Assembly: GCA_016866975.1 (NCBI GenBank) | Contig: VGKP01000002.1 | Span: forward strand, 18,866-82,865 | Length of the DNA: 64,000 nucleotides | Direction: 5' to 3' | Origin: Candidatus Pacearchaeota archaeon | Lineage (GTDB): Archaea; Nanobdellota; Nanobdellia; Pacearchaeales; GW2011-AR1 | The notes under the pieces: model-generated | Told to the model about the DNA's origin: nothing | What the model saw: only the letters and a program-made list of their open reading frames with translations | Database searches by the model: none | Made by a program: the position numbers and the translations under genes | Shown here: in pieces, positions 15,479-60,590 of the stretch | Layout: each line of letters opens with the position of its first letter | Position numbering within the stretch: position 1 is the stretch's first letter

Positions 15479-16206
15479 TTAAAGCTTCTCAATCGCAGGC
15501 AAAATATCCTCAAATTTTGACAAAATCATTAATGGCTTTCCTTTTTTAAGGCGCCCTTTATCATGAAATCCGAAATCAACAGCAATTGTACGTAAGCCAA
15601 CCTTACTCGCTTCAAAAATATCCCCCAGAGTATCTGTTACAAATATGCATTCATCAATCTTTAAATTGTGCTTTGAAAAAAGTATCCTAAATTTCTCTTC
15701 TTTAGATTTGTGCGTTTCAAATCCTAGAATTTCGCTGAATATGTGATTTATGTCAAGGAACTTGACTAAAACTCCAGCTTTTAAGCTGGAGTTGTTCCTT
15801 GAGCATCCAAAAAACGAGCGCCTGCATCAAACTGCGGCTTTTAAGCCGCAGTGGCGCATCGTTTTTTTGATTTTATTGTTCATAAAATAACTCTTAATTA
15901 TGATTTCTTTATTCGAAGTTATAATATACATTTTATATTTTTTGTTTATTTTAGACAGCTCCTCTTTTATTCTTTCCTCAATTTTCAATACCTTGAACTC
16001 CTCTTCCTGTAACTTAAAGAATTCATCAATTGGGCGTAGTTCCTTTGAAAGTAATAAATTGTCATATTCTTTAAATGCATTTCCGTTGAACATGTCCTTA
16101 TAACTATTTTTAGAAATTGAGGGTTTAATTTTTTATATATGCTGTATGCCAGATTAAAAGTGTCATGTATGACGCCATCAAAATCAAAGATAACCGACTT
16201 GATCAT
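15479..16206 (-). pseudogene. HAD-superfamily phosphatase, disrupted by a 1-nt frameshift and by repeat copy A
   Basis: Motif I MIKSVIFDFDGVIHDT (16206 down). Frame shift near 16120-16124 (CCC run). Motif II YIITSN. The ORF then reads into the repeat (..KKTMRHCGLKAAV stop). The C-terminal part FVTDTLGDIFEASKVGLRTIAVDFG continues in the same phase after the repeat and stops at 15479-15481. Confidence 0.8.
15748..15877 (+). mobile_element. Nested-hairpin repeat, copy A (short form, about 130 nt), inserted in HAD gene
   Basis: TTATGTC-CAAGGAAC-ttgactaaaa-CTCCAGC-ttttaa-GCTGGAG-tt-GTTCCTTG ... GCGCC-tgcatcaaa-CTGCGGC-ttttaa-GCCGCAG-t-GGCGC-atcgTTTTTTTGATTTTATT. Identical to copy B. Confidence 0.8.
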
Positions 16207-17266: not shown

Positions 17267-17415
17267 GCCCGGATGGCCCAGCGGTTACGGCGCGAGATTG
17301 CTACCTAAGGAAACCAATGTTTCCTTGTGGGTCAACCTTCTTTAAGGAAGGAAGACGCAAATGGCAAATATCTCGTTTCCGAAAGGATTCCCAGGTTCAA
17401 ATCCTGGTCCGGGCG
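17267..17415 (+). tRNA. tRNA-Ser (anticodon GCU), class II, with 66-nt intron at canonical 37/38 position (17304-17369)
   Basis: Acceptor GCCCGGA/TCCGGGC. Anticodon stem CGAGA/TCTCG, loop TTGCTA|intron|A. Long variable arm TTTCCGAAAGGATT. T arm CCAGG-TTCAAAT-CCTGG. A relaxed bulge-helix-bulge can be drawn (TGCT/GGCA helix flanked by 3-nt bulges). Confidence 0.85.
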
Positions 17416-17524: not shown

Positions 17525-17787
17525 TGAAGATAGATCCCTACAAACACAAGGAAAGGTACTTAGCCTGGAAAGAAGAAGCCATGAAAGGCATTTCATGCGT
17601 TTCTAAGGCTAATTTTGAGATAATAATGAGATTCCTTACAGATATGGAAGTAGGAGCAAATATAGCGAAAGGAAGCACAAAGGGGGCGAGAAGCTACATC
17701 CGCCTTAATACGCTCAGAGGAAAGCTTTGCTTCTTTGCTAAGAAATTTAACGGGGGCAAGCATGGATTATTATGTCAAGGAACTTGA
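17524..17787 (+). pseudogene. Tyrosine recombinase/integrase, N-terminal fragment truncated by repeat copy B
   Basis: MKIDPYKHKERYLAWKEE..NFEIIMRFLTDMEVGANIAKGSTKGARSYIRLNTLRGKLCFFAKKF resembles the N-terminal SAM-like domain of archaeal integrases (from memory). No catalytic R..HxxR..Y region. The last 6 codons lie in the repeat. Adjacent to a tRNA. Confidence 0.45.
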
Positions 17788-17899
17788 CTAAAACTCCAGC
17801 TTTTAAGCTGGAGTTGTTCCTTGAGCATCCAAAAAACGAGCGCCTGCATCAAACTGCGGCTTTTAAGCCGCAGTGGCGCATCGTTTTTTTGATTTTATT
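17770..17899 (+). repeat. Nested-hairpin repeat, copy B (short form)
   Basis: Identical to copy A over about 130 nt, including the TTATGTC left junction and the TTTTTTTGATTTTATT right end. Confidence 0.85.
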
Positions 17900-21466: not shown

Positions 21467-21811
21467 TTATGTCAAGGAACTTGACTAAAACTCCAGCTTT
21501 TAAGCTGGAGTTGTTCCTTGAGCATCCAAACCTCAAGAATCGAAGATTCTTGATGGCATCCAAGAACAATGTTCTTGGTGAAACGAGCGCCTGCATCAAA
21601 CTGCGGCTCATCAGGAATCTAAGATTCTTGAATGCCATCGAGGATTAACATCCTCGAGGTTTAAGCCGCAGTGGCGCATCGTTTTTTTGATATTATTTCG
21701 GGAACCGAAGAAAACCAAACCTCCTCAGGAATCTAAGATTCTTGAATGCCATCGAGGATTAACATCCTCGAGGTTTAAGTCGCAGTGGCGGATTGTTTTT
21801 TTGATTGTAAT
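21467..21811 (+). repeat. Nested-hairpin repeat, copy C (composite: long form 21467-21697 plus partial second unit 21698-21811, carrying three inserted double-hairpin modules)
   Basis: Same ends as A/B. 50-nt module at 21531-21580 between the two hairpins. 52-nt module at 21608-21659 inside the loop of hairpin 2. Near-identical 52-nt module again at 21722-21773. Confidence 0.85.
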
Positions 21812-35861: not shown

Positions 35862-37562
35862 ATGGCTCAAGAGGTGTTATGGTCTTTAAGTATTATTCTT
35901 GGTATTGTAGCAATAACCACAGTTATAGCAAGGATGATAAAGCAGCCTCCAATAATCGCATACCTAATTGCAGGGATAATTGTAGGCCCCTTGTTTCTAA
36001 AATTTCTTAGCCCCATCAGTCCATCTGCAGAGATTATTCAAATATTTTCCCATATTGGTGTGGCATTTCTTCTTTTTATAGTAGGTCTATCTCTTGATTT
36101 TAGGGTATTGAAGGAGATAGGAGGCGTTGCAAGCGCGGCAGGGTTTGCAGAAATTCTCTTGACGGGAGTTATAGGGGGATTTATCGCTATAGGTATAGGT
36201 TTCTCTTCATTGACAGCACTTTATATTGGTGCAGCCCTTGCCTTTTCATCTACAGTTGTCGTAGTCAAGATACTCTCAGACAAGAAAGAAATAGATACTC
36301 TCCATGGCCGCATCGCTCTGGGTATACTCATAGTTGAAGATTTTATTGCCAGCATAGCACTGATGTTGGTCCCTCTTTTAAATGAGGGTGGCGGATTGTA
36401 CTCTATTTTGTATAAGGTAGTGATTGTGGTGGCCCTCATAGGAGTAGTTTTCTTGGGAGCCACATTTGTATTAGGCAGATTTATGAATTATCTCTCTAGG
36501 AACCAGGAAGTGCTTTTCTTGTTCGGCATAGCTTGGGCATTGCTTCTTGCATCACTTTTTGATTATCTTGGATTTTCTCTTGAGATAGGGGCATTGATTG
36601 CAGGCATGTCTCTCGCTTCAAGTAAATATACTATGGATCTTGGAAGCAAGATGAAGCCATTAAGGGATTTCTTTGTAGTGTTATTCTTTGTATTCTTCGG
36701 AAGTCAGCTTGCAGGTACCATTTCCTGGAATCTCGTCCAGAATGCAGCCCTTCTTTCATTGTTCATTATAATAGGTAAGCCAGTTATAGTGATGAGTATC
36801 TTGAGGATTTTTGGATATAAGAAAAGGACAAATTTTCTTGCAGGTTCAAGTCTTGCCCAGATAAGCGAGTTCTCACTTATCCTTATACTGTTGGGCTTTA
36901 CTCTAGGTCATGTACCGCAGGAGATTATGAACTTGGCAATTTTGGTAGCGATAATAACTATAGGGATAAGCAGTTATGGGATGTATTATGCACATTCGAT
37001 ATTCAATAAGATAAGCCACATGCTCAATGTATTTGAAGGCAAGAGCCCTCACTCAATTAAGAATGTAGAGAACAATTACGACGTGGTGCTTATAGGCTAT
37101 CATAGGATGGGATACAAGATACTTGGTTCTTTGAAGAAAATAAAATCTCCATTTATAGTGGTCGACCATAATCCCAAAGTCATTCTTTCACTTTCAAAAT
37201 GGGGAGTGAACTGCATCTATGGAGATGCAAGCGATAAAGATTTCTTGAGGCAGCTTGAGTTGCACAAGGTAAAACTGATAATATCCACAATTCCTGAACC
37301 AGAGCCAAACAGAGCAATACAAGAATATCTAAATGAGAATGGAATAAAGTCCGCATTCATAGCGACTGCAGAACAGCCCAGGGAAGCTTTCAGCTTATAT
37401 GATCAAGGAGTTGATTATGTCCTTATTCCTCATCATCTCGGAGGCGAGTATGCTGCCCACATACTTGAGAAATTCAAGACTAACAAGAATCTTTACAAGC
37501 AGCTTGGGAAAAGGCATAGTGAACAGCTTAAGAAAGGCAAGGATCACTCAGAGTATCTTTAA
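35862..37562 (+). CDS. Cation:proton antiporter (CPA2/Kef-type) with C-terminal RCK/TrkA-N domain
   Basis: About 12 TM helices with Na_H-exchanger-like GLSLDF/ALIAGMSLA segments. C-terminal Rossmann VVLIGYHRMGYKIL..DASD. Confidence 0.85.
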   Translation: MAQEVLWSLSIILGIVAITTVIARMIKQPPIIAYLIAGIIVGPLFLKFLSPISPSAEIIQIFSHIGVAFLLFIVGLSLDFRVLKEIGGVASAAGFAEILLTGVIGGFIAIGIGFSSLTALYIGAALAFSSTVVVVKILSDKKEIDTLHGRIALGILIVEDFIASIALMLVPLLNEGGGLYSILYKVVIVVALIGVVFLGATFVLGRFMNYLSRNQEVLFLFGIAWALLLASLFDYLGFSLEIGALIAGMSLASSKYTMDLGSKMKPLRDFFVVLFFVFFGSQLAGTISWNLVQNAALLSLFIIIGKPVIVMSILRIFGYKKRTNFLAGSSLAQISEFSLILILLGFTLGHVPQEIMNLAILVAIITIGISSYGMYYAHSIFNKISHMLNVFEGKSPHSIKNVENNYDVVLIGYHRMGYKILGSLKKIKSPFIVVDHNPKVILSLSKWGVNCIYGDASDKDFLRQLELHKVKLIISTIPEPEPNRAIQEYLNENGIKSAFIATAEQPREAFSLYDQGVDYVLIPHHLGGEYAAHILEKFKTNKNLYKQLGKRHSEQLKKGKDHSEYL

Positions 37563-37572
37563 TAAGGGCTCT

Positions 37573-37796
37573 AGGGAACCTCGGCATCTTAAAGGGAGTT
37601 GACCCACAAGACGTCAGGAATAAAAGATTCCTGAGCGCGCTCAAGGACTTCGTCCTTGACGACCGTAGGTTTCTTAAAGGGAGTTGACCCACAAGAACCG
37701 TAGGTTCTTAGGAAGTTGACCCAAAAGGCCTCAAGAATCTGCCGATTCTTGACGGTCATCAGGGATTATAAATCCCTGAGAGAAACTTGGTTCCCT
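37573..37796 (+). repeat. Expanded composite member (H) of the hairpin-repeat family
   Basis: Closed by AGGGAACC/GGTTCCCT. Contains three tandem units CTTAAAGGGAGTTGACCCACAAGA (37588-37611, 37673-37696, degenerate 37707-37727) and two double-hairpin modules (37614-37659, 37731-37779). Confidence 0.7.
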
Positions 37797-37829: not shown

Positions 37830-39092
37830 ATGCTCGATATCAGGCTGTTCCGTGAAAATCCTCAGATAATCAAAGAGAGTCAAAAGAAAAGAGGAATGCC
37901 TACTGAAGAAGTAGATCTTGTGATGAAGTTGGACAATGAATGGAGGGCGCTCAAAGCAGAAGTTGACCACTTAAGAAATAAGCGCAATCAGGTTTCTAAG
38001 GAAATTAGCGAATTGAAGAAGAAAAGAAAGAAGGCAGACACGTTACTCAAAGAAGCAAAAAAGATTCCGAAGATGCTTATAGAGAAGGAGAACAAGATGA
38101 AGGAGCTTAATGAGAAACGCGACAATATTCTCAAAGAAATACCTAATATCATCGATCAATCTGTTCCACTCGGAGACGCTTCTCATAAAAAAGTCATCCT
38201 CGAGCATGGTAAGAATAAGTCAACATTCACTCATAAAGATCATGCAGATATTCTTGAAGCGCTCGATATGCTCGACACGCAAAAAGCATCTAATGTTGCA
38301 GGATCGCGCTTCTACTACTTGAAAGGTGACCTTGTGAAGCTCAATCTGGCCATTATGAGTTTTGCCTTAGATATCTTGCAGAAGAAAAGATTCACACTGG
38401 TGCAGCCACCGTATATGCTCCGCAAAGCAGCTCTTGAAGCAGCGCTGCCCCTCAAGGCATTTGAGGAAATGATTTATAAAATTGAAGGGGAGGACTTGTA
38501 CTTAATAGGCACTGCGGAGCATGCGCTCAATGCATATGGCATTAATACCACATTCTCACCTGCAGAGCTTCCGCTTCGCCTTGCAGGGATTTCTCCTTGT
38601 TTTAGGAAGGAAGCGGGCTCGCACGGCAAGGACACGAAAGGCATATTTAGGATCCATCAGTTTGAGAAGATCGAACAGTTTATTTTCTGCAAGCCTGAAG
38701 ATTCATGGAGAGAGTTTGATCTCATCCTCAAAAATTCAGAGGAAATTCTCAAGGCTCTTGAAATCCCCTTCCGGTTTGTCATCCTCTCATCTCAAGACAT
38801 GGGGCGCGTTCCTACTAAAACGGTGGACTTTGAAGGTTGGTTCCCAAGCCAGAATGCTTACCGCGAACTGGGGTCATGCTCAAATTGTTTAGACTATCAG
38901 GCGCGGAGGAGCAACACCAAGTATCAGGACAATAATGAATTCACATTCGTGCACACTCTTAATAACACAGCCATTGCAACTGAGCGCATGATGGCTTGCA
39001 TTATAGATAATAACCAGCAGAAAGACGGCACAATAAAGATTCCAGAAGTCCTTCAGCCCTACATGAACGGCAAGAAAGTGATAGGAAATTAA
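37830..39092 (+). CDS. serS: Seryl-tRNA synthetase
   Basis: N-terminal coiled-coil arm (MLDIRLFRENP..), class II motifs (FRKEAGSHGKDTKGIFRIHQFEKIEQF, GSCSNCLDYQARR, TLNNTAIATERMMACIIDN). Confidence 0.92.
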   Translation: MLDIRLFRENPQIIKESQKKRGMPTEEVDLVMKLDNEWRALKAEVDHLRNKRNQVSKEISELKKKRKKADTLLKEAKKIPKMLIEKENKMKELNEKRDNILKEIPNIIDQSVPLGDASHKKVILEHGKNKSTFTHKDHADILEALDMLDTQKASNVAGSRFYYLKGDLVKLNLAIMSFALDILQKKRFTLVQPPYMLRKAALEAALPLKAFEEMIYKIEGEDLYLIGTAEHALNAYGINTTFSPAELPLRLAGISPCFRKEAGSHGKDTKGIFRIHQFEKIEQFIFCKPEDSWREFDLILKNSEEILKALEIPFRFVILSSQDMGRVPTKTVDFEGWFPSQNAYRELGSCSNCLDYQARRSNTKYQDNNEFTFVHTLNNTAIATERMMACIIDNNQQKDGTIKIPEVLQPYMNGKKVIGN

Positions 39093-39139: not shown

Positions 39140-40576
39140 ATGAATTTTAATTGGATTTTTAATCGTGATGAAAAAGTACCGCTCAATAATGATTCTTCGG
39201 AGAGAGTGGAAGGATTTGAGCACGAGTATGCGATTGAATTTGATGAGATCGCTGATAAAGATGAAAGAGACAACTATATTGTGCAGAAATTACGGGGAGC
39301 GGAGGGCGTTAATGCCCCCAATGTTTATGGTATGCCTGCGCGGCACCGTTTTAATGGAGGAAGAGTGCACATTGATATGAAACATCTTGAAGGGTGTACA
39401 CCAGAAGTTACGAATACATTGGATTTACTGAAATACGATCGAGAGTTAGACCTGTTTGTTCTTGATCTCTTTGGCCCAGCATACAAACCACGAATTTACA
39501 AAATGAGTAGGGACGCTCGCGATACATTTGGCGGACTTCACAGAAACATCATGACTAGGCTTAAACCCGATGTTCGGGACAGAGAATCACTCTTACTTTG
39601 GGCAGTAGTGGAGAAAGTTCTCAATGGAACAGGTTACCAGAATCCTGATGGCCAATACGAACTGCTTCAACGTCGCACATACATAGGAGATGCTCTATCA
39701 GACAACTCTACAGGGGGCAAAGGATCTCGGCCACTTCTTAATCTTAGGGAAGAGAGACACTGTAAGGTAGATGGATGGTACCGTTTTCATGATATTGCAG
39801 GCGATGGTAACATGAATCAGGTAGCACTTGCTCTTAGCCAGGTGCTCTGGAAATGTGTTCTACAGCTAGCAGAAGAAGATAAGCTGCCAAGAATCCCATA
39901 TTATTCAGGAAAGCATTCAAATGAAGCCGTACGCGATATGGATAGCATTTGCTGCCGCCACAGTGACTGGACTCTCAAAGGAACACCTCTTGAATTTAGA
40001 TCTCTCACTTCTGTCTATCGCGAATTCTACAAAGTCATTAGAGGAGAGCTCTATGGTCAGAATACATTTACTGACAAAATAATTGATGTATTTGGAGACA
40101 CAATTCCTGCTCTAGATAATATCAATAATGATCCCTATGCTCTTGCAGGAAGGCTCGATTGGGTGGGAAAGAAATTCATGATTGAATATTTTATGGGTGC
40201 AACAGGAAGAGGTCCTGAAAGCAATGAAGTACAGAGCCTTAATGTAGATTATCACCGTATTGACGAAGGAGGTTTGTTCCATCTTACACGTTTAAACGAT
40301 GGGTGGATTGAGAACGAGGTTTCGGATAAAGAGGCGCGCACCGCCAGAAATACTCCTCCATTGACACGGGCGCATGCACGAGGAGAAATTGCACAAGCAT
40401 TCTCAGAGATTGCCATGAAGAATGGATTATCCATTCTTGTTGACTGGGAATCAATTGCTCTTTACAATAAAAGTACATCTCCTGTCTGGACGTGCAATTT
40501 TCCCAGACCAGCACACACTTATGTTGAATGCGTGAGTGAATTCAAAAGTTTCATCAGTAATTGTTCCAAGGCATAA
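39140..40576 (+). CDS. Pup-ligase/deamidase (PafA/Dop) family protein, divergent paralogue (active-site HENY replaced by HRNI)
   Basis: GFEHEYAIEF, NGGRVHIDMKHLEGCTPE, FGGLHRNI, GSRPLLNLREERH, RFHDIAGDGNM, RLDWVGKKFMIEY, LNVDYHRI, TPPLTRAHARGE, VDWESI. Collinear with PafA motifs as I remember them. Confidence 0.75.
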   Translation: MNFNWIFNRDEKVPLNNDSSERVEGFEHEYAIEFDEIADKDERDNYIVQKLRGAEGVNAPNVYGMPARHRFNGGRVHIDMKHLEGCTPEVTNTLDLLKYDRELDLFVLDLFGPAYKPRIYKMSRDARDTFGGLHRNIMTRLKPDVRDRESLLLWAVVEKVLNGTGYQNPDGQYELLQRRTYIGDALSDNSTGGKGSRPLLNLREERHCKVDGWYRFHDIAGDGNMNQVALALSQVLWKCVLQLAEEDKLPRIPYYSGKHSNEAVRDMDSICCRHSDWTLKGTPLEFRSLTSVYREFYKVIRGELYGQNTFTDKIIDVFGDTIPALDNINNDPYALAGRLDWVGKKFMIEYFMGATGRGPESNEVQSLNVDYHRIDEGGLFHLTRLNDGWIENEVSDKEARTARNTPPLTRAHARGEIAQAFSEIAMKNGLSILVDWESIALYNKSTSPVWTCNFPRPAHTYVECVSEFKSFISNCSKA

Positions 40577-40710
40577 ATTATTACTTTAAAATTCGTGGGG
40601 CCGTGGGTCAGTTTAGCAAAGCTTAAACCTTCGGGAGGTATGCACCTCATACACCAAATAAGCAATATAAACATATAAAATATTAAAAAGGGTTTATATT
40701 TGCCAAATTG

Positions 40711-42177
40711 ATGAAAGACAGGATTACACCTCGCGAAGCATTGGAAAGAAAAGCTGCCCCTCTCGTGTTTTTTGACCATATTCCTCAATATAACCGGAAT
40801 CGAATAATCTCGAGTGAACAGGAGAATGGGCAGAAATTAAGGAAAAAAGTGCATAAGGATTACGAAAAGAAAAGTGGTTGGGAGACCGAATTTACAGCAT
40901 ACTTGTCTGGATTTCTGCCAGATGTGGTGAGTCTTGGGGGAAGGATATATGCAGATGCAAACCATGTAGAGTTTGCACGGGCGGAATGCTCAAGCCCTCT
41001 GGAAGCAGTTGTTCACGAGGATGCTTTTGACAGGTTCGGTTTTAATCTTCTCACAGGCACCTTGAGACTTGTTCGTAAGCTCTATAAGAACAGTATAGAT
41101 TTTGGCAATCCGAAAAGGAATTCTCCTCCTGTAAGCTTCGGCTTCCACGAAAATTACAGCACAAAAATAATGTTTGGCCAAAGCAATCCTTCAGGTTTGT
41201 TGGCATTGGTTCCTCACCTAATATCTCGTACAATCTTTGGGGGTGCAGGATCATTACATAAGGCAAATAAATTTTTAAGGGCCCAGCGCTCTCTCTTTGT
41301 TAATAAATTGTGGAGCTTTAATGCTATCAAGGACGAAAGAGGGATAATCTGCACTCGCGTACAGCCACACACAGAGATTTCTGGTCTTCAGAGGCTACAA
41401 CTTACTTGTGGAGACGCCCTTATATCTCCAGTAAATCGCTTCCTTCTTTATGGCACAACAGCAACGGTAGTTGACCTAATAGAAGATAGGATAATTCCAT
41501 TATGTGATTATGACACAAGCTACGCAGTTGAAGATTTTCATGGAATAACTTATGACCCTGAGAACTATATATTAAGAGGGTTCCCATCTAAGAATTGGAC
41601 TGCTCTGGATGTACAAAGGAGGATTCTTGATAGTGCAATTAAGTCTTACTCGCATAGGGATCCTCAGACAAATGCCATTCTGTTTCTATGGGAAGATACT
41701 CTTAATAAGTTGGAATATGATCCATTTCAGCTTGTTGGAAGGCTAGATGCAATTACCAAGAAAGCATTATATACTTGTCTTGATGAGAGATTTCCAGATG
41801 TCCCTGAAGATTCTTTTTGGCAGATGAGGGGCATAGACATGAATTATCACGATATTAATCCAAACTATAGTATTTTTCAGGTAATGCGTTCCGAGGGGAT
41901 TATGGAGGATTTATATTCCAATAAATTATTTTCATGGTATATGCAAAATCCGCCTCCAAAAACCAGGGCGCATTTTAGGGGCAATCTTGCAAAAATTCTA
42001 ATTAGGGCAAAAGAGGATTTAGCAGTCCTTGATGGAGATGAATGGGATAAATGCGTTCCATTATCAGATATCTACAATATTTATCCGAATCTATGGGATT
42101 TAGATCTTTCTATAGATGACCCGTTTAATTCTTACAATGATCGTCTCACAGAGATAAAGGGAATTTTATCTCATTAA
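40711..42177 (+). CDS. Pup-ligase/deamidase (PafA/Dop) family protein, motifs intact
   Basis: GWETEF, GGRIYADANHVEFARAECSSP, FGFHENYS, SRTIFGGAG, AQRSLFV, RGIICTRVQPH, RLQLTCGDALISP, RLDAITKKALY, IDMNYHDI, PPPKTRAHFRGN. Confidence 0.8.
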   Translation: MKDRITPREALERKAAPLVFFDHIPQYNRNRIISSEQENGQKLRKKVHKDYEKKSGWETEFTAYLSGFLPDVVSLGGRIYADANHVEFARAECSSPLEAVVHEDAFDRFGFNLLTGTLRLVRKLYKNSIDFGNPKRNSPPVSFGFHENYSTKIMFGQSNPSGLLALVPHLISRTIFGGAGSLHKANKFLRAQRSLFVNKLWSFNAIKDERGIICTRVQPHTEISGLQRLQLTCGDALISPVNRFLLYGTTATVVDLIEDRIIPLCDYDTSYAVEDFHGITYDPENYILRGFPSKNWTALDVQRRILDSAIKSYSHRDPQTNAILFLWEDTLNKLEYDPFQLVGRLDAITKKALYTCLDERFPDVPEDSFWQMRGIDMNYHDINPNYSIFQVMRSEGIMEDLYSNKLFSWYMQNPPPKTRAHFRGNLAKILIRAKEDLAVLDGDEWDKCVPLSDIYNIYPNLWDLDLSIDDPFNSYNDRLTEIKGILSH

Positions 42178-42192
42178 CTTAAACGAGCCTAA

Positions 42193-42319
42193 TTATGTCG
42201 GGAACCGATGAAAATCACACCTTTCAAGGTATGGTGGTTCCCGAGCATCTCCAAAAACGAGCGCCTGCAACAAACCTCGGCTTTTAAGCCGAGGTGGCGC
42301 ATCGTTTTTGTGATATTTA
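42193..42319 (+). repeat. Nested-hairpin repeat, copy E (variant stems)
   Basis: TTATGTC-CGGGAACC-gatgaaaatc-..-GGTTCCCG-agcatctcc-AAAAACGAGCGCC-tgcaacaaa-CCTCGGC-ttttaa-GCCGAGG-t-GGCGC-atcgTTTTTG. Inner stem changed on both arms relative to A/B. Confidence 0.8.
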
Positions 42320-42849
42320 TATATACATAGAAGAAATTGATGATGGAAATAGATATAATTCAGGTAATGAGTGATTAAGATGGAAAATGTTCTCTTGAAA
42401 ATCAGGCAGAACTTAAACAAGTTACAATTAGGAGAATTTATTATTGCAGAGATCTGTTAAGGTTCTTAGATGAAAGTAACAGGACAAATGTCTATATTCT
42501 TGATGGATTTTTTATCTTTCAAGGAAGGTCCAGATTACGGGCCAGATTTTGTTACAGAGACAGCAACTGAAACCATAAAGGGGAGAGATGCATCCCCATT
42601 TATTCTCCGGTGCGCAAACTCACCTCAAGAGAAAAAAGCAAGAGAATTTGGCGTGAAATTTTTATAAGAGGTTTTCACAATAATGGAAAAGTTTTGCAGA
42701 GAGTTCAGCAACTTCTTCAAAATGCCAATAAAAACCAAAATTCAAGGAAAAATCACTTCAGCATCCAGCATTTATGCCTAGAAAAGGCAAAGACTCCAAT
42801 CAACAGCTGTCTTTATTTTAAATAAATTAAAAAGTAAGGAAATGTGTTT

Positions 42850-43074
42850 TTATTCAGTTATTTTATCGATGATTGCAAGCACAGCTCCCACTATTGTAAG
42901 GACTACAACAATCCATCCTGCGACTTGAGTTGTGGTCTCTAATTCAGGTATATACAATACTCCCTCGATCATTCCAAATCCTACAGCAAGTGATACCAAT
43001 ATTCCAGTTATCCAGAGTATTACGCCTAGAAGGATAGTAAGTGCCCGATTAGATCCTCTTCCATTTTTTGCCAT
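42850..43074 (-). CDS. Hypothetical small membrane protein (74 aa, two TM helices)
   Basis: Clean ORF, GGAGG-like SD (aggaggtg) upstream, strongly hydrophobic. Confidence 0.6.
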   Translation of the reverse strand: MAKNGRGSNRALTILLGVILWITGILVSLAVGFGMIEGVLYIPELETTTQVAGWIVVVLTIVGAVLAIIDKITE

Positions 43075-43198: not shown

Positions 43199-43258
43199 CA
43201 CAAAACCTCAAGCAAGTCCAGGCATTTAAGCCGAGGTTAAAACCCGAAGGGTTTTGTG
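43199..43258 (+). repeat. Degenerate fragment (G) related to hairpin 2 of the repeat family
   Basis: CACAAAACC..GGTTTTGTG outer stem enclosing CCTC[aagcaagtccag]GCATTTAAGCCGAGG (compare copy E CCTCGGCTTTTAAGCCGAGG). Confidence 0.35.
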
Positions 43259-44050: not shown

Positions 44051-46108
44051 TCAAAATCCTCCAGCCATATGGAGTGGATTTTTTGCTTTGACCTGAAGGC
44101 CTCTTACAGCATCCAAAACTCTGGAATCAGGAGATAATACAAAGACATGGTCATCTTTTGAGCGCAATGCTCTATATATTCTTTGAAGGAATTCTCTTCT
44201 TGCCTTATCCCTGTAGAAATCCCAAAAATATTTCTCATGTGTCTTCTGTAATATCTTCCAGAAAACGCCATTGACATTAGGATTGGGATATTTTGTGAAT
44301 ACGACTGAATTGCAGATGTCTCCTGGAAAATCTACTCCTCTCGAGCATTTTGTCGTGAATAATATAGAAGATTTTCTTTCTTTGAATTCTGAGACCATTT
44401 TCCCAGTCTTGTCTTCTGTTTGCAGGGCCATCAGCCTTTCTCTGGACATCAGATTGTCTAAGCGAAGGATGTGTAATTCCTGCTCTGTAGGGAGATCTTC
44501 AAACGCATTGACATGTACCAAAGTAGGTCTCTTTGCTTTGTCTATGCATAGTGATAATGTTTTGAGATATTCATCTCTGGAATGTTTGCCTGAACTGAAA
44601 TTTGAATACCTGCAATCAAATTCTTTTCCTGTCCTATGAATCTCTATATTGCCTTGCGGCATCGTCTCAGCTTCCACTATCTCAAAGTCATCTATCCCGA
44701 ATATTTCTTTAAGGACAATTGAGGAATGAAGAGTCCCAGACATCATGACTAAAGACTTGTTTTTCTTTACAATCTCTTGAAATTTCTTAGAAAGGTTCGT
44801 CGTGACAAGATTGACAAAGATATCTTTATCGACTCTTTTGTATGTGATGTATGTATCTTCAATAAAGTCTATGAAATTCTTCGCCACTTCTATGGCTTTA
44901 TTGGCATAATGCATCTCGTCTATGGCAATCTCGGCCTCTATTTCTGGATGTTTTAGAAACATCTTGAGTATCTTTTCCCATTGAGTTTCTTTTATAGGGT
45001 AAATCTTGTTCTCGTTTATGCCCAACGCCTGCTTGTTTTTTTCTTCAAGTCCGAGCAGGTTCTCAATTGATTCCACAAGAACGCGCGCTTCTGGATGTTC
45101 AGGAGTTATTGAAGAAAGGGATGAAGAAAGGCGAGTTAGATTCAATGAATCCTGCATAGAGAAATTATCCAGGAATTCGTCAGCTTCATCTATTATTTCC
45201 ACTTCTGTTTCAGGCTTCCTGTCAAGCGCAACTTCTATCTTATATTTTGCCGCATTGAATATAAGGACATCCGCTTGCATATAAGCAAGGTATTGATCGT
45301 AATAAGAGCAACCTTCTTTTCTATGGTAAAATGTGAACTGCTTACCCTCAAGCCCATTGTAAGTCTTTTTTTTAGCATCCTTTATAGCGGCAATTTCTAT
45401 TTCTGCTGGTAATATTGGGCTCCAATAAGGATTGGCGGGGGCTATTGCTATCCTCCTAAGATCTTTTATCTCTGGCATATCTTTGTTCCTTATATAAGGG
45501 TTCTGTTTATAATATTCTTCTAGTTTCTCTAAGTTTTTATCAGTTAACTTTATAGTGTCAGGAAGAGAAGGGTCGGCACACGAGACTCCTGGAAACAAAA
45601 CAGAATCATGGTTTTCCCTCCCAGTTATCATTGCTATCTTCATCTTCTTACCCCCTTTCTTTAGGACATATTTTTTTGAAGTATAGTCCTCTTCATATTG
45701 CCTTTGCAGGTTTTTTACAGGCACAACTATAGATGCCCTGCCCAAAAGTCTAGCAATATTCAAGGCTATTGCTGATTTTCCAGTACCGCATACGCCGTGA
45801 AGAAATACTAACTTCTTGCCATTATTTATATGTCCTGCAATTTCTTTGGCTATGGCTTCCTGACTCTTTCCATTTGAGAATCTTAGGGGTTCTAATTTTT
45901 TACCTTCAGAGTAAAGACTCCACGTCTCACTATCAACGACATTGCTTATTGTCTCTTCTTTTAGGAATGATAGTGCATCAGATGTCCTTAGATTTGTGCC
46001 CAATAGCTCATCTTCATCCTCAATATCTCTGCGGTTGTTTCCAAAATTCACAGCCTTATTGTCAACACTAAATAATTTTCCATTTGCATCAAACTGCATC
46101 CTCTTCAT
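44051..46108 (-). CDS. Superfamily-2 DNA helicase, XPD/Rad3/DinG-like (DEAD_2 / helicase C_2 type)
   Basis: Walker A HGVCGTGKSAIAL, DEAD-type IIDEADEF, MMSGTL, C-terminal TKCSRGVDFPGD and QRIYRALRSKDD motifs. No obvious 4-Cys FeS cluster seen. Confidence 0.75.
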   Translation of the reverse strand: MKRMQFDANGKLFSVDNKAVNFGNNRRDIEDEDELLGTNLRTSDALSFLKEETISNVVDSETWSLYSEGKKLEPLRFSNGKSQEAIAKEIAGHINNGKKLVFLHGVCGTGKSAIALNIARLLGRASIVVPVKNLQRQYEEDYTSKKYVLKKGGKKMKIAMITGRENHDSVLFPGVSCADPSLPDTIKLTDKNLEKLEEYYKQNPYIRNKDMPEIKDLRRIAIAPANPYWSPILPAEIEIAAIKDAKKKTYNGLEGKQFTFYHRKEGCSYYDQYLAYMQADVLIFNAAKYKIEVALDRKPETEVEIIDEADEFLDNFSMQDSLNLTRLSSSLSSITPEHPEARVLVESIENLLGLEEKNKQALGINENKIYPIKETQWEKILKMFLKHPEIEAEIAIDEMHYANKAIEVAKNFIDFIEDTYITYKRVDKDIFVNLVTTNLSKKFQEIVKKNKSLVMMSGTLHSSIVLKEIFGIDDFEIVEAETMPQGNIEIHRTGKEFDCRYSNFSSGKHSRDEYLKTLSLCIDKAKRPTLVHVNAFEDLPTEQELHILRLDNLMSRERLMALQTEDKTGKMVSEFKERKSSILFTTKCSRGVDFPGDICNSVVFTKYPNPNVNGVFWKILQKTHEKYFWDFYRDKARREFLQRIYRALRSKDDHVFVLSPDSRVLDAVRGLQVKAKNPLHMAGGF

Positions 46109-46153: not shown

Positions 46154-46519
46154 CTAATCTCTCTCGACTTCTATAGAGTTTTGAGATTCCCTGATGACTA
46201 TCTTGTTTTGGACTTCTCTTTTTATACCTGAATCCAGAGTCGCTATATACGCTCCCTTCTTGCCTATCGAGATAAGCCCTTTGTCCACAGCATCATTTCC
46301 AAGTGAAGTCTTCTTTATCTTTCTAGTGTTGAATAAATCAAATGCCATATCTATAGCTGCCCTGTCAGCCGACCTGACTTTTAGGCGAAGGTCTTTTAGC
46401 TCCTGAAATACTTCCTTTGGGAGCAATACCTTGAAACCCATCTCCTCTAATACAGATATAAAATCAATTTTCTTTTTGACACAAGAAATGATGAAACTGC
46501 TATCAAGAATTGCCTCCAT
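46154..46519 (-). CDS. PIN-domain protein, Fcf1/Utp24-like
   Basis: Start at MEAILDSSFII (46519). PIN acidic residues (LDSSF.., ..EL.., ATLDSG). The size and pattern resemble the archaeal Fcf1 homologue. Confidence 0.65.
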   Translation of the reverse strand: MEAILDSSFIISCVKKKIDFISVLEEMGFKVLLPKEVFQELKDLRLKVRSADRAAIDMAFDLFNTRKIKKTSLGNDAVDKGLISIGKKGAYIATLDSGIKREVQNKIVIRESQNSIEVERD

Positions 46520-46602
46520 GAGATAAAAAAGATATAGAACTTTATAAGTCTTTGTAGTTGAGCGCCTGTAATGTTTATATACATTCATTGCTTGATAAAT
46601 CA

Positions 46603-47163
46603 ATGGAAGAGGTGTCCCATATAATCCACGTTCTTGAAGATGCCAAGCAGGCACTTCTAAAGAAAGACGGCACGAAGTTGAGCCAGCTATCAAACCAAAC
46701 TATTCACTGTGCTTCTTCAGAGCAGGACGCAAGTAGCATTATGATTGCAGTGCTTGTCTATTCGATGAGCAAGATTGTTGAGAGGAAAGATCTCCATAGG
46801 ATTAGGAATTATGACCTTGTGGTTAAAAAGTTTATTGGATACCTGGATCTCGCGCTTCTAGCATTGAAGGAAGGGAATCTGGAGGCTTATGAAGGCCATC
46901 TGCAAAGAGCAAGGATTGCCTTGACAAGCACATCATTGAACATAAAACCATTTATTCAGGATGTGCTTAGGAAAGCTTCAATAAACAAGGCTTCAAAGAT
47001 ATATGAGCACGGCATTTCTATGGGCCGTACTGCAGCACTTTTGGGCGTTACTCAATGGGAGCTTTCGGAATATACTGGGCAAAAAGAAGTTCTGGAGAGG
47101 AATTATGTTTCCACCCAAGATGTCCGTTCACGTGCAGAAATGGCCCTGAGGTTCTTCTCATGA
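46603..47163 (+). CDS. Hypothetical protein with C-terminal XRE-like helix-turn-helix
   Basis: GISMGRTAALLGVTQWELSEYTG near the C-terminus. Stop overlaps the next ATG (ATGA). Confidence 0.55.
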   Translation: MEEVSHIIHVLEDAKQALLKKDGTKLSQLSNQTIHCASSEQDASSIMIAVLVYSMSKIVERKDLHRIRNYDLVVKKFIGYLDLALLALKEGNLEAYEGHLQRARIALTSTSLNIKPFIQDVLRKASINKASKIYEHGISMGRTAALLGVTQWELSEYTGQKEVLERNYVSTQDVRSRAEMALRFFS

Positions 47164-48875: not shown

Positions 48876-48960
48876 TGGGCCCAGGAGGAATCGAACCCCC
48901 GACTTTCGGTTGCTCCAAATAGCTCTGGAGCCGAAAATTATACCATTTAACTATGGACCC
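48876..48960 (-). tRNA. tRNA-Trp (anticodon CCA) with a 14-nt intron after position 37
   Basis: Reverse complement: GGGTCCA-TA-GTTA-AATGGTA-TAAT-T-TTCGG-CTCCAG[agctatttggagca]A-CCGAA-AGTC-GGGGG-TTCGATT-CCTCC-TGGGCCC-A. Intron TGGAG pairs with CTCCA of the anticodon loop. Confidence 0.8.
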
Positions 48961-53047: not shown

Positions 53048-54580
53048 ATGGAAAAGAAGCCTTCATCAGACTTGGAAAAGATTACAGATATGCTTTCTCC
53101 TATGGAAAGGAAGGTTGTACCTTATCTGAAATATTCAATTGAGGAGATAGAGAAAAAATCAGGGCTTGATAATGTTTCAGTGATGAGGGCCCTTAGGTTC
53201 ATGGAAAATAAGGGATTGGTCAAAATAAAGGCTACCGAGCAGGCAGTCATAGATTTAGGCACTAATGGGATATATTATAAAAAACATCATCTCCCGGAAA
53301 GGCAGCTTCTAACTTTGTTGGAGTCTCATGGAAACCTTAGTCTGGAAGAGACTAAGAAATTATCGAAACTTTCAGATAATGAGTTCAAAGTTGCCCTCGG
53401 AGTATTGAAGAACAAGGCTCTTCTATCCATATCAAATGGAAGACTTTTATTGAATGCTTCAAAAGAAGAGTTGATGAAAAAATCTCTAGAAGAACAGTTT
53501 ATTGAAATCTTGCCTATCGAGCAATCAAAGCTGTCTCCAGAATACTTACACGCTCTTGAACAATTGAAGAAGCGAAAGGACATTGTGCAGGTCAATGTAG
53601 TAAATTTAGTTTCGTTTTCTCTTACTTCTTTAGGCCATGAAATTGCAGGCAAAGATCTTGCATATGCATCTAATCTTATAGAAGAGGTTTCTCCAGAAGT
53701 AATCAGAGCTTGGTCAAAGGGAAAAAAGTTTAGGAAATATGACATCCAAGCTGCAGTCCCAAAGATTTCTGGTGGAAAGAGACATTTTGTCAACATCTCC
53801 ATAAATAGGGCTAAAAGGATATGGATGGATCTCGGTTTTCAGGAGATGCAGGGCCCTCTTGTAGATTCATCCTTTTGGGTATTTGACGCGTTGTTTACTC
53901 CGCAGGATCATCCTGCCAGAGAAATGCAGGATACTTTTTTCATCAAAGGTGAGAAAGGAAAACTGCCCAGCAGCGATGTGGTAAAGGATGTCAAAAAGGC
54001 CCACGAGTCAGGAGTCTCAGGAAGCAAAGGTTGGAGATATTCATGGAAGGAAGAAGAAGCCAGGAAAGTCCTTTTAAGGACACATACTACTTGCTTATCT
54101 GCCAGGACACTAGCATCATTGAGAGGAATAAAAAATAAGACTGGAAAATATTTCTCAGTAGGAAAATGTTTTAGGAATGAGACTCTTGATTGGTCACACG
54201 GTTTTGAATTTAATCAGACAGATGGCATAGTAGTTTCAAAAGATACTAACTTTAGGAATCTCCTGGGATATTTAAAGGAATTTTTCACAAAGATGGGATT
54301 TGCAGAAATAAAGTTCATTCCATCTTTTTTTGCATATACTGAGCCAAGTGTAGAGATATACGGTTTTCACAAAGGCAATAAGAAGTGGATAGAGATTGGA
54401 GGAGCAGGCATATTTAGGCCAGAGGTTGTAGTCCCGTTGCTTGGAGAATATGTGCCTGTCCTTGCATGGGGACCAGGATTTGATAGAGTGATAATGGATA
54501 GATATGGTATCACTGACCTCCGAGAGATGTATGAGAACGATATTCAGAGATTAAGAGAAAAGAAGGAGGCCTTAGACTGA
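53048..54580 (+). CDS. pheS: Phenylalanyl-tRNA synthetase alpha subunit (archaeal/eukaryotic type)
   Basis: N-terminal winged-helix repeats. Class II core FDALFTPQDHPAREMQDTFF, LLRTHTT, FSVGKCFRNE, GAGIFRPEV. CTTTATAAT box about 25 nt upstream. Confidence 0.92.
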   Translation: MEKKPSSDLEKITDMLSPMERKVVPYLKYSIEEIEKKSGLDNVSVMRALRFMENKGLVKIKATEQAVIDLGTNGIYYKKHHLPERQLLTLLESHGNLSLEETKKLSKLSDNEFKVALGVLKNKALLSISNGRLLLNASKEELMKKSLEEQFIEILPIEQSKLSPEYLHALEQLKKRKDIVQVNVVNLVSFSLTSLGHEIAGKDLAYASNLIEEVSPEVIRAWSKGKKFRKYDIQAAVPKISGGKRHFVNISINRAKRIWMDLGFQEMQGPLVDSSFWVFDALFTPQDHPAREMQDTFFIKGEKGKLPSSDVVKDVKKAHESGVSGSKGWRYSWKEEEARKVLLRTHTTCLSARTLASLRGIKNKTGKYFSVGKCFRNETLDWSHGFEFNQTDGIVVSKDTNFRNLLGYLKEFFTKMGFAEIKFIPSFFAYTEPSVEIYGFHKGNKKWIEIGGAGIFRPEVVVPLLGEYVPVLAWGPGFDRVIMDRYGITDLREMYENDIQRLREKKEALD

Positions 54581-56199
54581 TGGCTTCAGTAAAATTTCCG
54601 AGGAAAGAGTTTGAGAAAAATATCAAGCTGACCAAAGAGATAGAAGACAAGATTAATCTTTTTGGTACTCATGTTGAGTCATTGACCGACTCAGAGATAG
54701 AGATAGAAGTCTTGCCTAACCGTCCGGATCTTTTTTCTATGCAGGGTTACGTAAGGGCAATTTCTGCATTTATTGGTAAGAGTCCTGGCCTGAAAAAATA
54801 CACTGTCTCATCTTCAGGAGAAAAATTGATTGTCAAAAAACCCCTTCCAAAGAATTGGGTATATGCATATGCTTGTATAGTTAAAGGTGTCAAGTTTGAT
54901 AATGAGAGGATAAAAGAAGTCATCCAAATCCAGGAGAAGTTAGGAGCAACTCTTCTGAGGAATAGAAAAAAAGGAGGTATTGGATTATATCCTCTTGACA
55001 AAATAAGTTTCCCAATAACTTTCAAGGGAATGAACCCAGATGAGATTATGTTTAGGCCACTCGAATATCCAGAGATTATCACTGGAAGACAAGTGCTGGC
55101 CAGGCATCCAACTGGAAGAGAGTATGCGCATCTGGTATCAGACTGGGATGTTTTTCCAGTATTTGTTGATTCTAAAGGAGTGATTATGTCAATGCCTCCT
55201 ATAATAAACGCACATGAAGTAGGCAAGATTGATGAGAATACCAAAAATGTATTTGTAGAATGTACAGGAACAGATCCTAATGTCATAAAAAAGGCCCTGA
55301 TTATTCTATTGACAGCATTAGCAGAGATGGGGGGCAAAATACATTCGATAGAATGCACTCAACAGGACGGTGAGAAAGAATCATTTCCAGACTTGAGCCC
55401 TGAAAAGATGAAATTATCTCTAGATAATGCAAATAAACTTATAGGGTTGGATTTGAAAGAGAATGAGGTTGAGAGATTTCTTGCTAAGATGGGTCATGAT
55501 TATAAGAAAGGTACTGTCTCAGTAGCTCCATGGAGGACAGATGTATTACACGAGGTTGACCTCATTGAAGATATTGCAATTGCTTATGGTTATGATAAGA
55601 TACAGCCTGAAATACCTAAAGTCTCTACGATAGGAGGAGAATCGAGAGCTAGTCAAATAAAATCAAAGATAGCAGAAGCCCTGATAGGGCTAGGATTTTT
55701 GGAGATTTCTTCTTATCATCTGGTTAAAGAAGACGAGATCAAAAGAAATAAAGGCTTGGAGAAGATAGAAGTTGAAGATTCAAAGACTGAATATAAGTAC
55801 CTTCGCCCATCACTTCTTGTCCCTGCGCTGAGGATATTTTCAGAGAATAAGGACAATGAATACCCTCAGAAGATCTTCGAGATTGGTACTGTTTTTCTGA
55901 AGGACAACAAGATAGAGACAGGTATCGGAGAATCGAGTCATCTTATAGTTGCGTCTTCCCCTGCCAATTTTACTGAGTTGAAGCAAGTTCTGGAGTACTT
56001 ATTCAGATCTTTCGGTATCAAGTGCAGTCTTAAGGAGTCAGTCAAAGACGGATTTATAGAAGGCAGAGTAGGAGAAGTCATATCAAATGGCAAGTCCATC
56101 GGAGTCATAGGGGAAATGCACCCAGAGACCTTAAGGGAATGGGGGATAAAGATGCCAATAGCATTTCTTGAGATAAATCTAGATCCATTTCTCGCATAA
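54580..56199 (+). CDS. pheT: Phenylalanyl-tRNA synthetase beta subunit (archaeal type)
   Basis: B3/4 and B5 domain patterns (EIEVLPNRPDLFSMQGYVRA, PWRTDVLHEVDLIEDIAIAYGYD). ATG overlaps the pheS stop. Confidence 0.9.
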   Translation: MASVKFPRKEFEKNIKLTKEIEDKINLFGTHVESLTDSEIEIEVLPNRPDLFSMQGYVRAISAFIGKSPGLKKYTVSSSGEKLIVKKPLPKNWVYAYACIVKGVKFDNERIKEVIQIQEKLGATLLRNRKKGGIGLYPLDKISFPITFKGMNPDEIMFRPLEYPEIITGRQVLARHPTGREYAHLVSDWDVFPVFVDSKGVIMSMPPIINAHEVGKIDENTKNVFVECTGTDPNVIKKALIILLTALAEMGGKIHSIECTQQDGEKESFPDLSPEKMKLSLDNANKLIGLDLKENEVERFLAKMGHDYKKGTVSVAPWRTDVLHEVDLIEDIAIAYGYDKIQPEIPKVSTIGGESRASQIKSKIAEALIGLGFLEISSYHLVKEDEIKRNKGLEKIEVEDSKTEYKYLRPSLLVPALRIFSENKDNEYPQKIFEIGTVFLKDNKIETGIGESSHLIVASSPANFTELKQVLEYLFRSFGIKCSLKESVKDGFIEGRVGEVISNGKSIGVIGEMHPETLREWGIKMPIAFLEINLDPFLA

Positions 56200-58029: not shown

Positions 58030-58351
58030 CTTTCAATAAAGAATTAATGATTTATAATTTTATCTTTCAACAATTACACTACTAAATCAACTGAGCCAAA
58101 GGTGAAGACTATCTCTTTTCTCTCAGAAAGAACCGTACGTGCCTCCCAGTTTTAACTCAAAGTACCTAAGAAAAGACAATAAACTACTCCTATTTTTTTC
58201 ACAGAAAAGGCTTTTAAAGGGCGGAGAATAGAAATATGTATGGAATTAAAGTGCCAACCTACAGGAAGGAATTCAATCACCTTTAGTTGGTACTTCCATA
58301 TGGCATAAGAGAGTATCTCTATACCAAATTAAACTTTTCTGATACCCTCTT

Positions 58352-60180: not shown

Positions 60181-60432
60181 ATGGTTTCCTTAAAAGTATG
60201 GATGGGAGTCACAGGAAATCCGCTAAATTTGGGAGTTCTAGAGAAAAGAGTCAAAGACATGGTTGTTGGAGAGAAAGGATTTATCGAGTATAGGGCAATC
60301 TGTTTTATTGAAGGCCAGGTACATTGTCTGAATTTATGTGCAAATGTATATCCAAATTTTAGACAAAAGAAGGGCATGCCTATAGAAAGGATTGGAAAGA
60401 GAAAAATTGATTATGTCAAGGAACTTGACTAA
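60181..60432 (+). CDS. Hypothetical ORF whose last 7 codons lie in repeat D (possibly the 5' half of a gene split by the repeat)
   Basis: The ORF ends ..KIDYVKELD with the stop inside the repeat. See the finding on frame arithmetic. Confidence 0.35.
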   Translation: MVSLKVWMGVTGNPLNLGVLEKRVKDMVVGEKGFIEYRAICFIEGQVHCLNLCANVYPNFRQKKGMPIERIGKRKIDYVKELD

Positions 60433-60590
60433 AACTCCAGCTTTTAAGCTGGAGTTGTTCCTTGAGCATCCAAACCTCAAGAATATTCTATTCTTGATGG
60501 CATCCAAGAACAATGTTCTTGGTGAAACGAGCGCCTGCATCAAACTGCGGCTTTTAAGCCTCAGTGGCGCATCGTTTTTTTGATGATATT
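60411..60590 (+). repeat. Nested-hairpin repeat, copy D (long form with one double-hairpin module at 60475-60524)
   Basis: Same as A/B plus a 50-nt module CCTCAAGAATattctATTCTTGAtggcaTCCAAGAACaatGTTCTTGGTG. One mismatch in the inner stem of hairpin 2 (GCCTCAG). Confidence 0.85.

Follow-up and report, generated by a model that had tools for sequence, protein, structure and literature searches.

PafA/Dop-family genes without a linked Pup gene in a Candidatus Pacearchaeota archaeon and in related DPANN lineages

Two adjacent open reading frames (ORFs), here called A and B, were found in a 64,000-nt stretch of a Candidatus Pacearchaeota archaeon (assembly GCA_016866975.1, contig VGKP01000002.1 of 96,941 bp, forward strand, 18,866-82,865). 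This whole stretch is referred to as the window. Their products are almost certainly members of the PafA/Dop (Pup_ligase) family living in an archaeon, and no gene for a Pup-like tag was linked to them. The explanation tentatively preferred here, at a little under an even chance for the whole statement including its substrate class, is that A and B are active ATP-dependent gamma-carboxylate-amine ligase/amidase enzymes that would work on a non-canonical or unlinked polypeptide substrate. In the literature, pupylation enzymes are treated as a bacterial invention, i.e., of Actinobacteria, Nitrospirae and, sporadically, other phyla, and the only tagging attributed to archaea is of the SAMP/Urm1 type. 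The locus appears to represent a PafA/Dop branch that is stably inherited in several DPANN lineages, under purifying selection and apparently catalytically intact. Like its relatives in bacteria of the candidate phyla radiation (CPR), this branch has lost the link to Pup.

An earlier sequence-only reading of the same DNA had described two adjacent ORFs of 478 and 488 amino acids (aa) as PafA/Dop-family paralogues. Both ORFs were present, and the family assignment was borne out by profile and structure matches. The Pfam profile PF03136 (Pup_ligase, gathering cutoff 25) was matched with 144.4 bits by A (E 7e-42) and with 204.1 bits by B (E 5e-60). Both proteins are labelled as hypothetical at NCBI. 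By sequence-only matching, the solved Dop and PafA structures in PDB were recovered with E 5e-20 for A and E 6e-34 for B. The AlphaFold model of A (predicted local distance difference test, pLDDT, 81; predicted template modelling score, pTM, 0.86) was aligned by Foldseek with Dop (4B0R, 7OXY) and PafA (4BJR) at template modelling (TM) scores of 0.77-0.80 across about 490 columns, whereas the next fold class, i.e., glutamate-cysteine ligase (GCL), YbdK and glutamine synthetase (GS), reached at most 0.45. The model of B was also confident (pLDDT 85, pTM 0.90). Thus, the profile search and the single-protein structure predictions that had been proposed as checks placed both proteins in Pup_ligase, not in another ATP-grasp/GS-like family, with the full PafA/Dop fold for A. 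In the family architecture, about 400 aa form the N-terminal domain, which contains a GS-like beta-sheet cradle, and about 70 aa form the C-terminal domain (PMC3511204). This two-domain architecture was recognized in both proteins by profile alignment, the Foldseek match of A and the model of B, and the archaeal-clade profile covered residues 5-474 of Corynebacterium PafA, including the family-specific C-terminal domain. The identity between A and B was 23%.

The published catalytic set of Acidothermus Dop comprises the Mg ligands E8, E10, Y92, E99, H155 and H241, the water-activating D94 and the phosphate-binding R227. The residues at the equivalents of E8/E10/Y92/D94/E99/H155/R227/H241 are E, E, H, D, E, H, R, H in A and E, E, Y, D, E, H, R, Q in B. 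The single change in A is therefore His at the Y92 site, and the single change in B is Gln at the H241 site, where His is found in the B relatives P0002, P0003 and P0004 (here and below, P and L numbers denote proteins and loci). The equivalents of E8, E10, D94, E99, H155, R227 and H241 were conserved throughout the A clade in the alignment. Between the A-type orthologues of L001 and L004, which are 70% identical, the nonsynonymous rate (dN) was 0.19 and the synonymous rate (dS) 1.31, and the resulting dN/dS of about 0.15 points to purifying selection on A-type genes. The ATP-Mg and catalytic apparatus of A and B appears to be intact, and both are probably enzymatically active.

Most of the motifs listed in the sequence-only reading stood, i.e., NGGRxxxD..HxE, the Arg of NxRxE, RLDWxxKK, DYHxI and PPxTRAxxRG. 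Two of its points did not. The segment 'GWETEF' of B (residues 56-61) had been taken as the GhExE motif, but it was a chance match within a predicted helix (57-68), as judged by alignment and predicted secondary structure, and the true beta1 strand homologous to GhExE is 'ISSEQE' (residues 33-38). A had been suggested as a possibly non-catalytic or diverged copy by reason of a Glu-to-Arg change in 'HENY'. This Glu corresponds to E156 of Acidothermus Dop, which lies outside the published catalytic set, and its equivalent is Q, L or R across the whole A clade. A retains the catalytic set with one Tyr-to-His change, and it is B that has lost the His241 ligand.

According to Iyer 2008, the Pup gene of bacteria invariably adjoins a PafA-family gene. 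A tag-like ORF was defined as a small ORF on the same strand with C-terminal G-[QE] at most 1.5 kb from a Pup_ligase gene, and a Pup, taken as the mark of a pupylation system, as a disordered protein of 50-90 aa with C-terminal G-[QE] encoded beside a PafA-family gene. Tag-like ORFs were found at 41 of 47 loci outside DPANN and CPR, versus none of the 13 DPANN loci, where the lone match (L057) was an out-of-frame ORF within the enzyme gene. These tags were of the classical Pup (...KGGQ), UBact-like (...RQRTG[EQ]) and planctomycete (...HGGE) types, with UBact-type ORFs at the Latescibacterota/Verrucomicrobiales loci L013-L016. No UBact ORF (about 60 aa, ...RQRTG[EQ]) was found beside Pup_ligase at DPANN loci. 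By phmmer, 13 Pup, UBact and planctomycete tags hit nothing below E 0.1 in the six-frame translated window, the DPANN loci and the CPR loci. When intergenic ORFs of 25-130 aa with a C-terminal E or Q were screened more loosely, no candidate that was hydrophilic and conserved emerged, and ORF inspection of the spacer between A and B revealed no Pup gene. Neither a proteasome subunit nor an Mpa/ARC-type AAA unfoldase was found within the window or 10 kb past its right end. The absence of Pup, Mpa/ARC ATPase and proteasome subunit from the window, which the sequence-only reading had reported, was in this way confirmed by screens of the full 64 kb.

Several candidates for a hidden tag were considered and rejected. 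A decayed pup in the spacer was suspected from the resemblance of 'SLAKLKPSGG' to the tail of the L006 Pup (...NLAKEYKQSGGQ), but 53% of shuffles and 276 of 488 window tiles reached its best local score of 22. The small membrane protein encoded on the minus strand downstream of B ends in Glu, but the last residue of its homologues is A in L001, K in L004 and A in L007. The window also contains ORFs ending in G[QE], e.g., 54510-54668 (...LGGQ) and 58106-58231 (...KGGE). Their number is that expected by chance on a rough estimate, and they were hydrophobic or gene-overlapping and not Pup-like. The one at 58106-58231 (+) is an intergenic ORF of 30-41 aa ending in ...LLKGGE, without similarity to Pup and likewise expected by chance on a rough estimate.

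The archaeal host was supported by gene content and by synteny. Archaeal genes of the window include L1, L10P with the archaeal insertion domain, PheRS alpha and beta and TrmB regulators, together with Ogg-HhH glycosylase, RNase HII, RNase P p30, SMC and FtsZ genes, and archaeal genes flank the locus on both sides. The GC content at the locus was 0.40-0.43, i.e., the upper end of the window range (0.33-0.43). The order Na+/H+ exchanger, serS, Pup_ligase, helicase (-) and PIN_9 (-) was repeated in six other DPANN lineages, namely L001-L003 (ENA, JGI), L004/L011 (Pacearchaeota MaH-04nov19-88), L005 (Logan), L007/L008/L010 (Woesearchaeota SRP178908_co1_358), L057 (Pacearchaeota GCA_016196285.1) and L058/L059 (Nanoarchaeota, Hainich groundwater). 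These relatives come from independent samples and assemblies (ENA, JGI, NCBI, Logan) with contigs up to 136 kb. Because the slot is shared by independent DPANN assemblies, contamination and chimerism are effectively excluded. The earlier view of the locus as archaeal and not chimeric was upheld by the gene content and the six syntenic lineages, and the proposed check of its distribution in related archaeal metagenome-assembled genomes (MAGs) gave the same answer.

In the slot, serS lies immediately 5' of the Pup_ligase gene in five DPANN lineages, and an ORF of 255-276 aa lies between the two genes in L004/L011 and L007/L008/L010. The orthologues of A (P0007-P0011) are 43-46% identical and occupy the same slot. 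The relatives of B are 62% (P0002), 39% (P0003) and 38% (P0004) identical. A single Pup_ligase gene was present at the slot in five of the six relative lineages, i.e., an A-side gene without B in four and a B-type gene in L005, where it directly follows serS and the contig ends 115 bp past its stop. A and B are therefore not obligate partners.

Three further features of the slot were observed in the relatives. In the Hainich Nanoarchaeota (L058, 10001-12804), a tandem Pup_ligase pair follows serS, the two genes being 47 bp apart and without a tag. The first copy, P0045, has lost the equivalents of R205, R227 and H241 and is pseudo-enzyme-like, and the second copy has intact catalytic positions with only R239 changed (to Leu), so that the tandem is possibly an active and degenerate pair. 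The conserved ORF of 255-276 aa that separates serS from the A-type gene (L004, 9158-9925; L007, 9143-9973) has no counterpart ORF in the window. It has neither a Pfam/NCBIfam family nor a Glu/Gln terminus, and a functional link was considered but not established. A convergent Pyr_redox_2 gene (thioredoxin-reductase-like) was found just past Pup_ligase in L001 (11816-12859), L007 (11367-12871), L057 (11336-12373) and L058 (12805-14249), with a DoxX gene also at that site in L007/L008 and L058. The Pyr_redox_2 neighbour was absent from the window and from L004.

Judged by profile scores and alignments, A and B are family members but orthologues of neither PafA nor Dop. The PafA equivalog TIGR03686 (cutoff 551.3) gave 103.2 bits for A and 133.3 bits for B, and the Dop equivalog TIGR03688 (cutoff 492.3) gave 98 and 159.7 bits, respectively. 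The Dop loop, i.e., about 37-40 residues before beta2, was absent from both proteins in the multiple alignment, and the clade-profile alignment showed a 42-residue gap against Acidothermus Dop at this loop. Scores so far below the equivalog cutoffs, together with the missing Dop loop, argue against orthology to either enzyme. According to Hecht 2020, PafA is set apart by the Val insertion, by G66/S67 and A72/A74, and by H188/W190/E191/S194/S195/A196 of the alpha-loop. The one-residue (Val) insertion that follows the catalytic Asp in PafA is missing from A and B alike, their alpha-loop residues are not PafA-like, and both have the Dop-type D-x-x-H-x-E spacing past this Asp. Window B alone has Ala at 101 as well as at 103 in Dop numbering. 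Over the 20 positions that discriminate ligases from hydrolases (Hecht et al. 2020), A and B showed a mixed pattern, and whether each is a ligase or a hydrolase cannot be read from the sequence. The ligase/deamidase split suggested by the sequence-only reading was not supported, as neither protein has the Dop loop, the Dop-type spacing occurs in both and both fall below the PafA and Dop cutoffs. As natural 'intermediate' sequences with a Dop-like catalytic loop and no Dop loop, they are of use for the ligase-versus-hydrolase question of Hecht et al. 2020.

In comparison with known systems, the DPANN proteins share with PafA (TIGR03686; 4B0T, 4BJR) the Pfam family, the two-domain fold and the absence of the Dop loop, and GhExE, the catalytic Asp, the Mg ligands, R227 and H241 are conserved in the clade. 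However, PafA has D-V-G-S-H-P-E and the alpha-loop H..WEG.SSA, which the DPANN proteins do not have, and no Pup gene lies near the DPANN genes. Likeness to Dop (TIGR03688; 4B0R, 7OXY) was seen in the D-x-x-H-x-E spacing, in the best PDB sequence matches, in Pro at 103 in the A clade and in an alpha-loop often with F at 208 and T at 217, whereas the loop of about 40 residues and the Pup substrate gene are absent from DPANN loci. The UBact-associated and planctomycete homologues (Verrucomicrobia, Latescibacterota, Pirellulaceae) are similarly divergent, non-actinobacterial and often present as two paralogues, but their loci have an adjacent tag ORF (...RQRTG[EQ] or ...HGGE). In the planctomycete proteins, the hmmsearch match is also interrupted by an unaligned insertion of about 100 residues that is not found in the DPANN genes; a four-transmembrane-segment insertion in such planctomycete ligases was described by Iyer 2008. 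The enzymes in the superfamily of carboxylate-amine ligases (GCL/YbdK/GS) have the same beta-sheet cradle and ATP-Mg acyl-phosphate chemistry, with Foldseek E values of 2e-4 to 1e-3. However, their TM scores stay at or below the value given above, and they lack the PafA/Dop C-terminal domain.

Orphan genes were also found in CPR bacteria. The Saccharibacteria locus L012 (7851-9260) and L061 (8001-9392) each have a single Pup_ligase gene, and no Pup-like ORF ending in G[QE] was found within about 1.5 kb. L061 is presumably a CPR locus, given its bacterial gene context, and CPR bacteria are assumed to lack proteasomes. These orphans (P0042 in L061) resemble the DPANN proteins in tree radiation, length (450-470 aa), ultra-small-genome hosts and the absence of the Dop loop, the last shown for P0042 only, as L012 was not aligned. 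They differ in bacterial host, in genomic context and in sequence (25-30% identity to A and B). In another Patescibacteria MAG (L017, 5126-8321), tandem Pup_ligase paralogues are followed at once by a 40-aa ORF ending in ...VVAPPGE, which may be a very short tag.

Word-index homologue searches returned very few relatives, and the size of the family was revealed only by an exhaustive HMMER search, which recovered 5602 cluster representatives with E <= 1e-3, of which 1666 had E <= 1e-30, with scores declining continuously below the A and B clades. In a neighbour-joining (NJ) tree with 100 bootstraps, in which the PafA and Dop clades were labelled by position beside Pup, the canonical PafA and Dop clades were separate from a large, poorly resolved radiation containing A and B. 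A clustered with P0051, P0022 (Pacearchaeota), P0045 (Nanoarchaeota), P0019, P0014 and P0018 with 96% bootstrap, and B clustered elsewhere in the radiation with P0002 and P0003 with 100% bootstrap. As A and B belong to different subclades, they are not a recent tandem duplicate. The radiation also includes the Saccharibacteria homologue (L012) and P0042, whose neighbours are bacterial (S16, L32, NusB and RNase III). The close DPANN relatives P0022 and P0045/P0167, from Pacearchaeota and Nanoarchaeota MAGs, are named 'proteasome accessory factor PafA2 family protein' at NCBI. Published surveys of the family, Iyer 2008 among them, cover bacterial phyla only, and no publication dealing with PafA/Dop homologues from archaea, DPANN or CPR turned up in the literature searched. 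The earlier view of a bacteria-only record was right for that literature but not for the databases, where DPANN Pup-unlinked PafA/Dop-like enzymes are named without having been described in the literature searched.

The classical Pup operon layout was seen in L006, L027 and L062, i.e., in those relatives of B that were fetched from outside the Pacearchaeota-type slot. L006 and L027 have a paralogue, a 60-61 aa Pup ending in ...KGNLAxxYKQxGGQ and a second paralogue. In L062 (6565-12221; GCA_964587045.1, GC about 52%), an Mpa-like AAA protein (TIGR03689, 382 bits), a Dop-like protein of 598 aa, a Pup variant of 60 aa (...KGNLADQYKQQGGQ) and two more paralogues are encoded, which makes three Pup_ligase paralogues in total, and two Ser/Thr kinase genes lie upstream of this system. 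The L062 host looks bacterial by its Mpa-type ATPase and its GC content, and its taxonomy is uncertain.

According to the preferred explanation, A and B are anciently diverged PafA/Dop members that have been vertically maintained in DPANN (Pacearchaeota, Woesearchaeota, Nanoarchaeota) at the slot downstream of serS. Their ancestor may have come from a bacterial operon of the 'paralogue-Pup-paralogue' type through horizontal transfer. If the family mechanism applies, ATP-Mg would be bound by each enzyme on the beta-sheet cradle, and the gamma-carboxylate would be phosphorylated, or the gamma-amide attacked, at the terminal Glu/Gln of a bound polypeptide. The intermediate would then pass to an amine, for ligation, or to water, for amidase activity, as in PafA and Dop. 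Since no adjacent Pup- or UBact-like tag was found, the substrate would be an unlinked, unrecognisable small protein or a different Glu/Gln-bearing substrate. Several points weigh against this explanation. The scan covered the 64 kb of the window and the adjoining 10 kb on its right side, out of a genome assumed to be about 1 Mb, and a canonical Pup elsewhere would turn the system into ordinary unlinked pupylation. The orphan Pup-less copies in CPR (L012, L061) hint that the function requires no proteasome and no protein tag. Activity could be reduced by Gln at the His241 site of B and His at the Tyr92 site of A, and some DPANN paralogues (P0045, P0051) are without R227 and H241 and look degenerate. 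The backbone of the NJ tree is poorly supported, so that the source and direction of transfer are not established.

Ordinary pupylation, with Pup and perhaps an unfoldase encoded elsewhere in the genome and with A and B as ligase and deamidase/depupylase feeding the archaeal proteasome, was considered quite unlikely. It would fit the family C-terminal domain and the motifs outside the catalytic centre (LDWVxKK, DYHxI, PPxTRAxxRG) that are retained in both proteins, a tandem arrangement resembling the bacterial dop/pafA pair, and the adjoining Pup of the B relatives; moreover, all archaea encode proteasome components according to a 2025 review. However, the adjacent tag seen at most loci outside DPANN and CPR was missing from every DPANN locus, no Pup-like sequence was present in the 74 kb around A and B, and most related DPANN lineages retain one enzyme only. 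The absence of a linked tag gene, also in the CPR orphans, would also suit gamma-glutamyl ligases or amidases of small molecules or peptides, like GCL, YbdK or gamma-glutamyl-polyamine synthetase, possibly in low-molecular-weight thiol metabolism. Pup_ligase is part of the GCL/GS superfamily of carboxylate-amine ligases (Iyer 2008), weak Foldseek matches to GCL and YbdK were obtained, and Pyr_redox_2 lies immediately downstream in four DPANN lineages, together with DoxX in L007/L008 and L058. This possibility was rated as somewhat unlikely, as the neighbouring Pyr_redox_2 gene is encoded on the other strand and missing from the window and L004, the PafA/Dop C-terminal domain and open two-domain architecture are fully retained, and the TM score of about 0.8 to PafA/Dop is far above that to GCL/YbdK.

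The missing Pup gene, the key residues lost from P0045 and P0051 and the loss of one or other paralogue in most lineages could also be read as signs of decay, i.e., A and B as functionless remnants of a horizontally acquired bacterial operon. This is very improbable, because intact frames of 450-490 aa occur in seven lineages diverged to 30-46% identity, the catalytic residues are conserved, dN/dS is low, and the genes are retained at a fixed position in strongly reduced genomes. A bacterial contaminant or chimeric assembly, which would agree with the earlier description of the family in bacteria only, has a practically negligible chance. Against it stand the gene order shared by the independent assemblies, the locus GC content within the window range and the archaeal genes on either side.

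It is also conceivable, though doubtful, that in DPANN and, in parallel, in CPR the orphan PafA/Dop-type enzymes run a Pup-free covalent modification, either via a cryptic, unrelated small protein tag or by direct gamma-glutamyl isopeptide joining or cleavage on specific proteins. If so, a cryptic tag would be an archaeal counterpart of pupylation and could deliver proteins to the archaeal proteasome. The direct targets could include host/symbiont surface proteins or cytosolic proteins, in organisms that are attached to other cells. The locus has meaning as a test case of what the PafA/Dop scaffold is capable of without Pup and of a possible second, non-ubiquitin-fold tagging route in archaea. 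If a canonical Pup is encoded elsewhere in these genomes, the result would be simpler yet new, i.e., horizontal transfer of pupylation into Archaea.

The coordinates of A, B and the genes of the conserved slot are given in Table 1. B may have its own promoter in the spacer, judging from the AT-rich, TATA-like runs there.

Table 1. Features of the locus and its conserved neighbourhood (window coordinates)
Feature	Position	Strand	Description
Na+/H+ exchanger with TrkA_N	35862-37562	+	Pfam; same position in L001, L004, L005, L007, L057, L058
Seryl-tRNA synthetase (serS)	37830-39092	+	Pfam Seryl_tRNA_N and tRNA-synt_2b; conserved upstream anchor
Paralogue A	39140-40576	+	478 aa, FJZ18_01115, Pup_ligase family, DPANN 'A-type' clade
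A-B spacer	40577-40707	+	131 bp, AT-rich, TATA-like runs; only 21-aa and 27-aa ORFs inside
Paralogue B	40711 (ATG) or 40708 (in-frame TTG) to 42177	+	488/489 aa, FJZ18_01120, separate 'B-type' clade
74-aa two-helix membrane protein	42850-43074	-	Conserved; homologues in L001, L004, L007
XPD/Rad3-like helicase	44051-46108	-	Pfam Helicase_C_2 and ResIII; found in all longer relatives
PIN_9 domain protein	46154-46693	-	Pfam PIN_9; PIN_9 at same position in L007, L008, L057, L058

Two tRNA genes were matched by Rfam at 17267-17415 (149 nt) and 48876-48960 (85 nt). They were missed by ARAGORN and were taken as archaeal-intron-containing.

A dispersed intergenic repeat was found at 15748-15877, 17770-17899, 21467-21596, 42191-42320 and 60411-60590, with 32-nt units at 43206 and 57594, and several copies are near tRNA genes. 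The copy at 42191-42320 (repeat families D1 and D2) lies directly 3' of the B stop. Members of one repeat family had been placed on both flanks of the locus by the sequence-only reading. This was true of the copy after B, but the upstream repeat belongs to a different family. Located between the Na+/H+ exchanger gene and serS, it is a direct repeat of 36 nt (...CTTAAAGGGAGTTGACCCACAAGA) with two copies at 37576-37611 and 37661-37696 that are 86% identical. The core of the dispersed repeat is a hairpin, of which the stems vary yet stay complementary, i.e., CTCCAGC/GCTGGAG, TGCGGC/GCCGCA and CCTCGGC/GCCGAGG. The loop is TTTTAA in most copies and variant in two of the ten listed. The repeat may represent a structured RNA, a terminator-like element or a miniature inverted-repeat transposable element.

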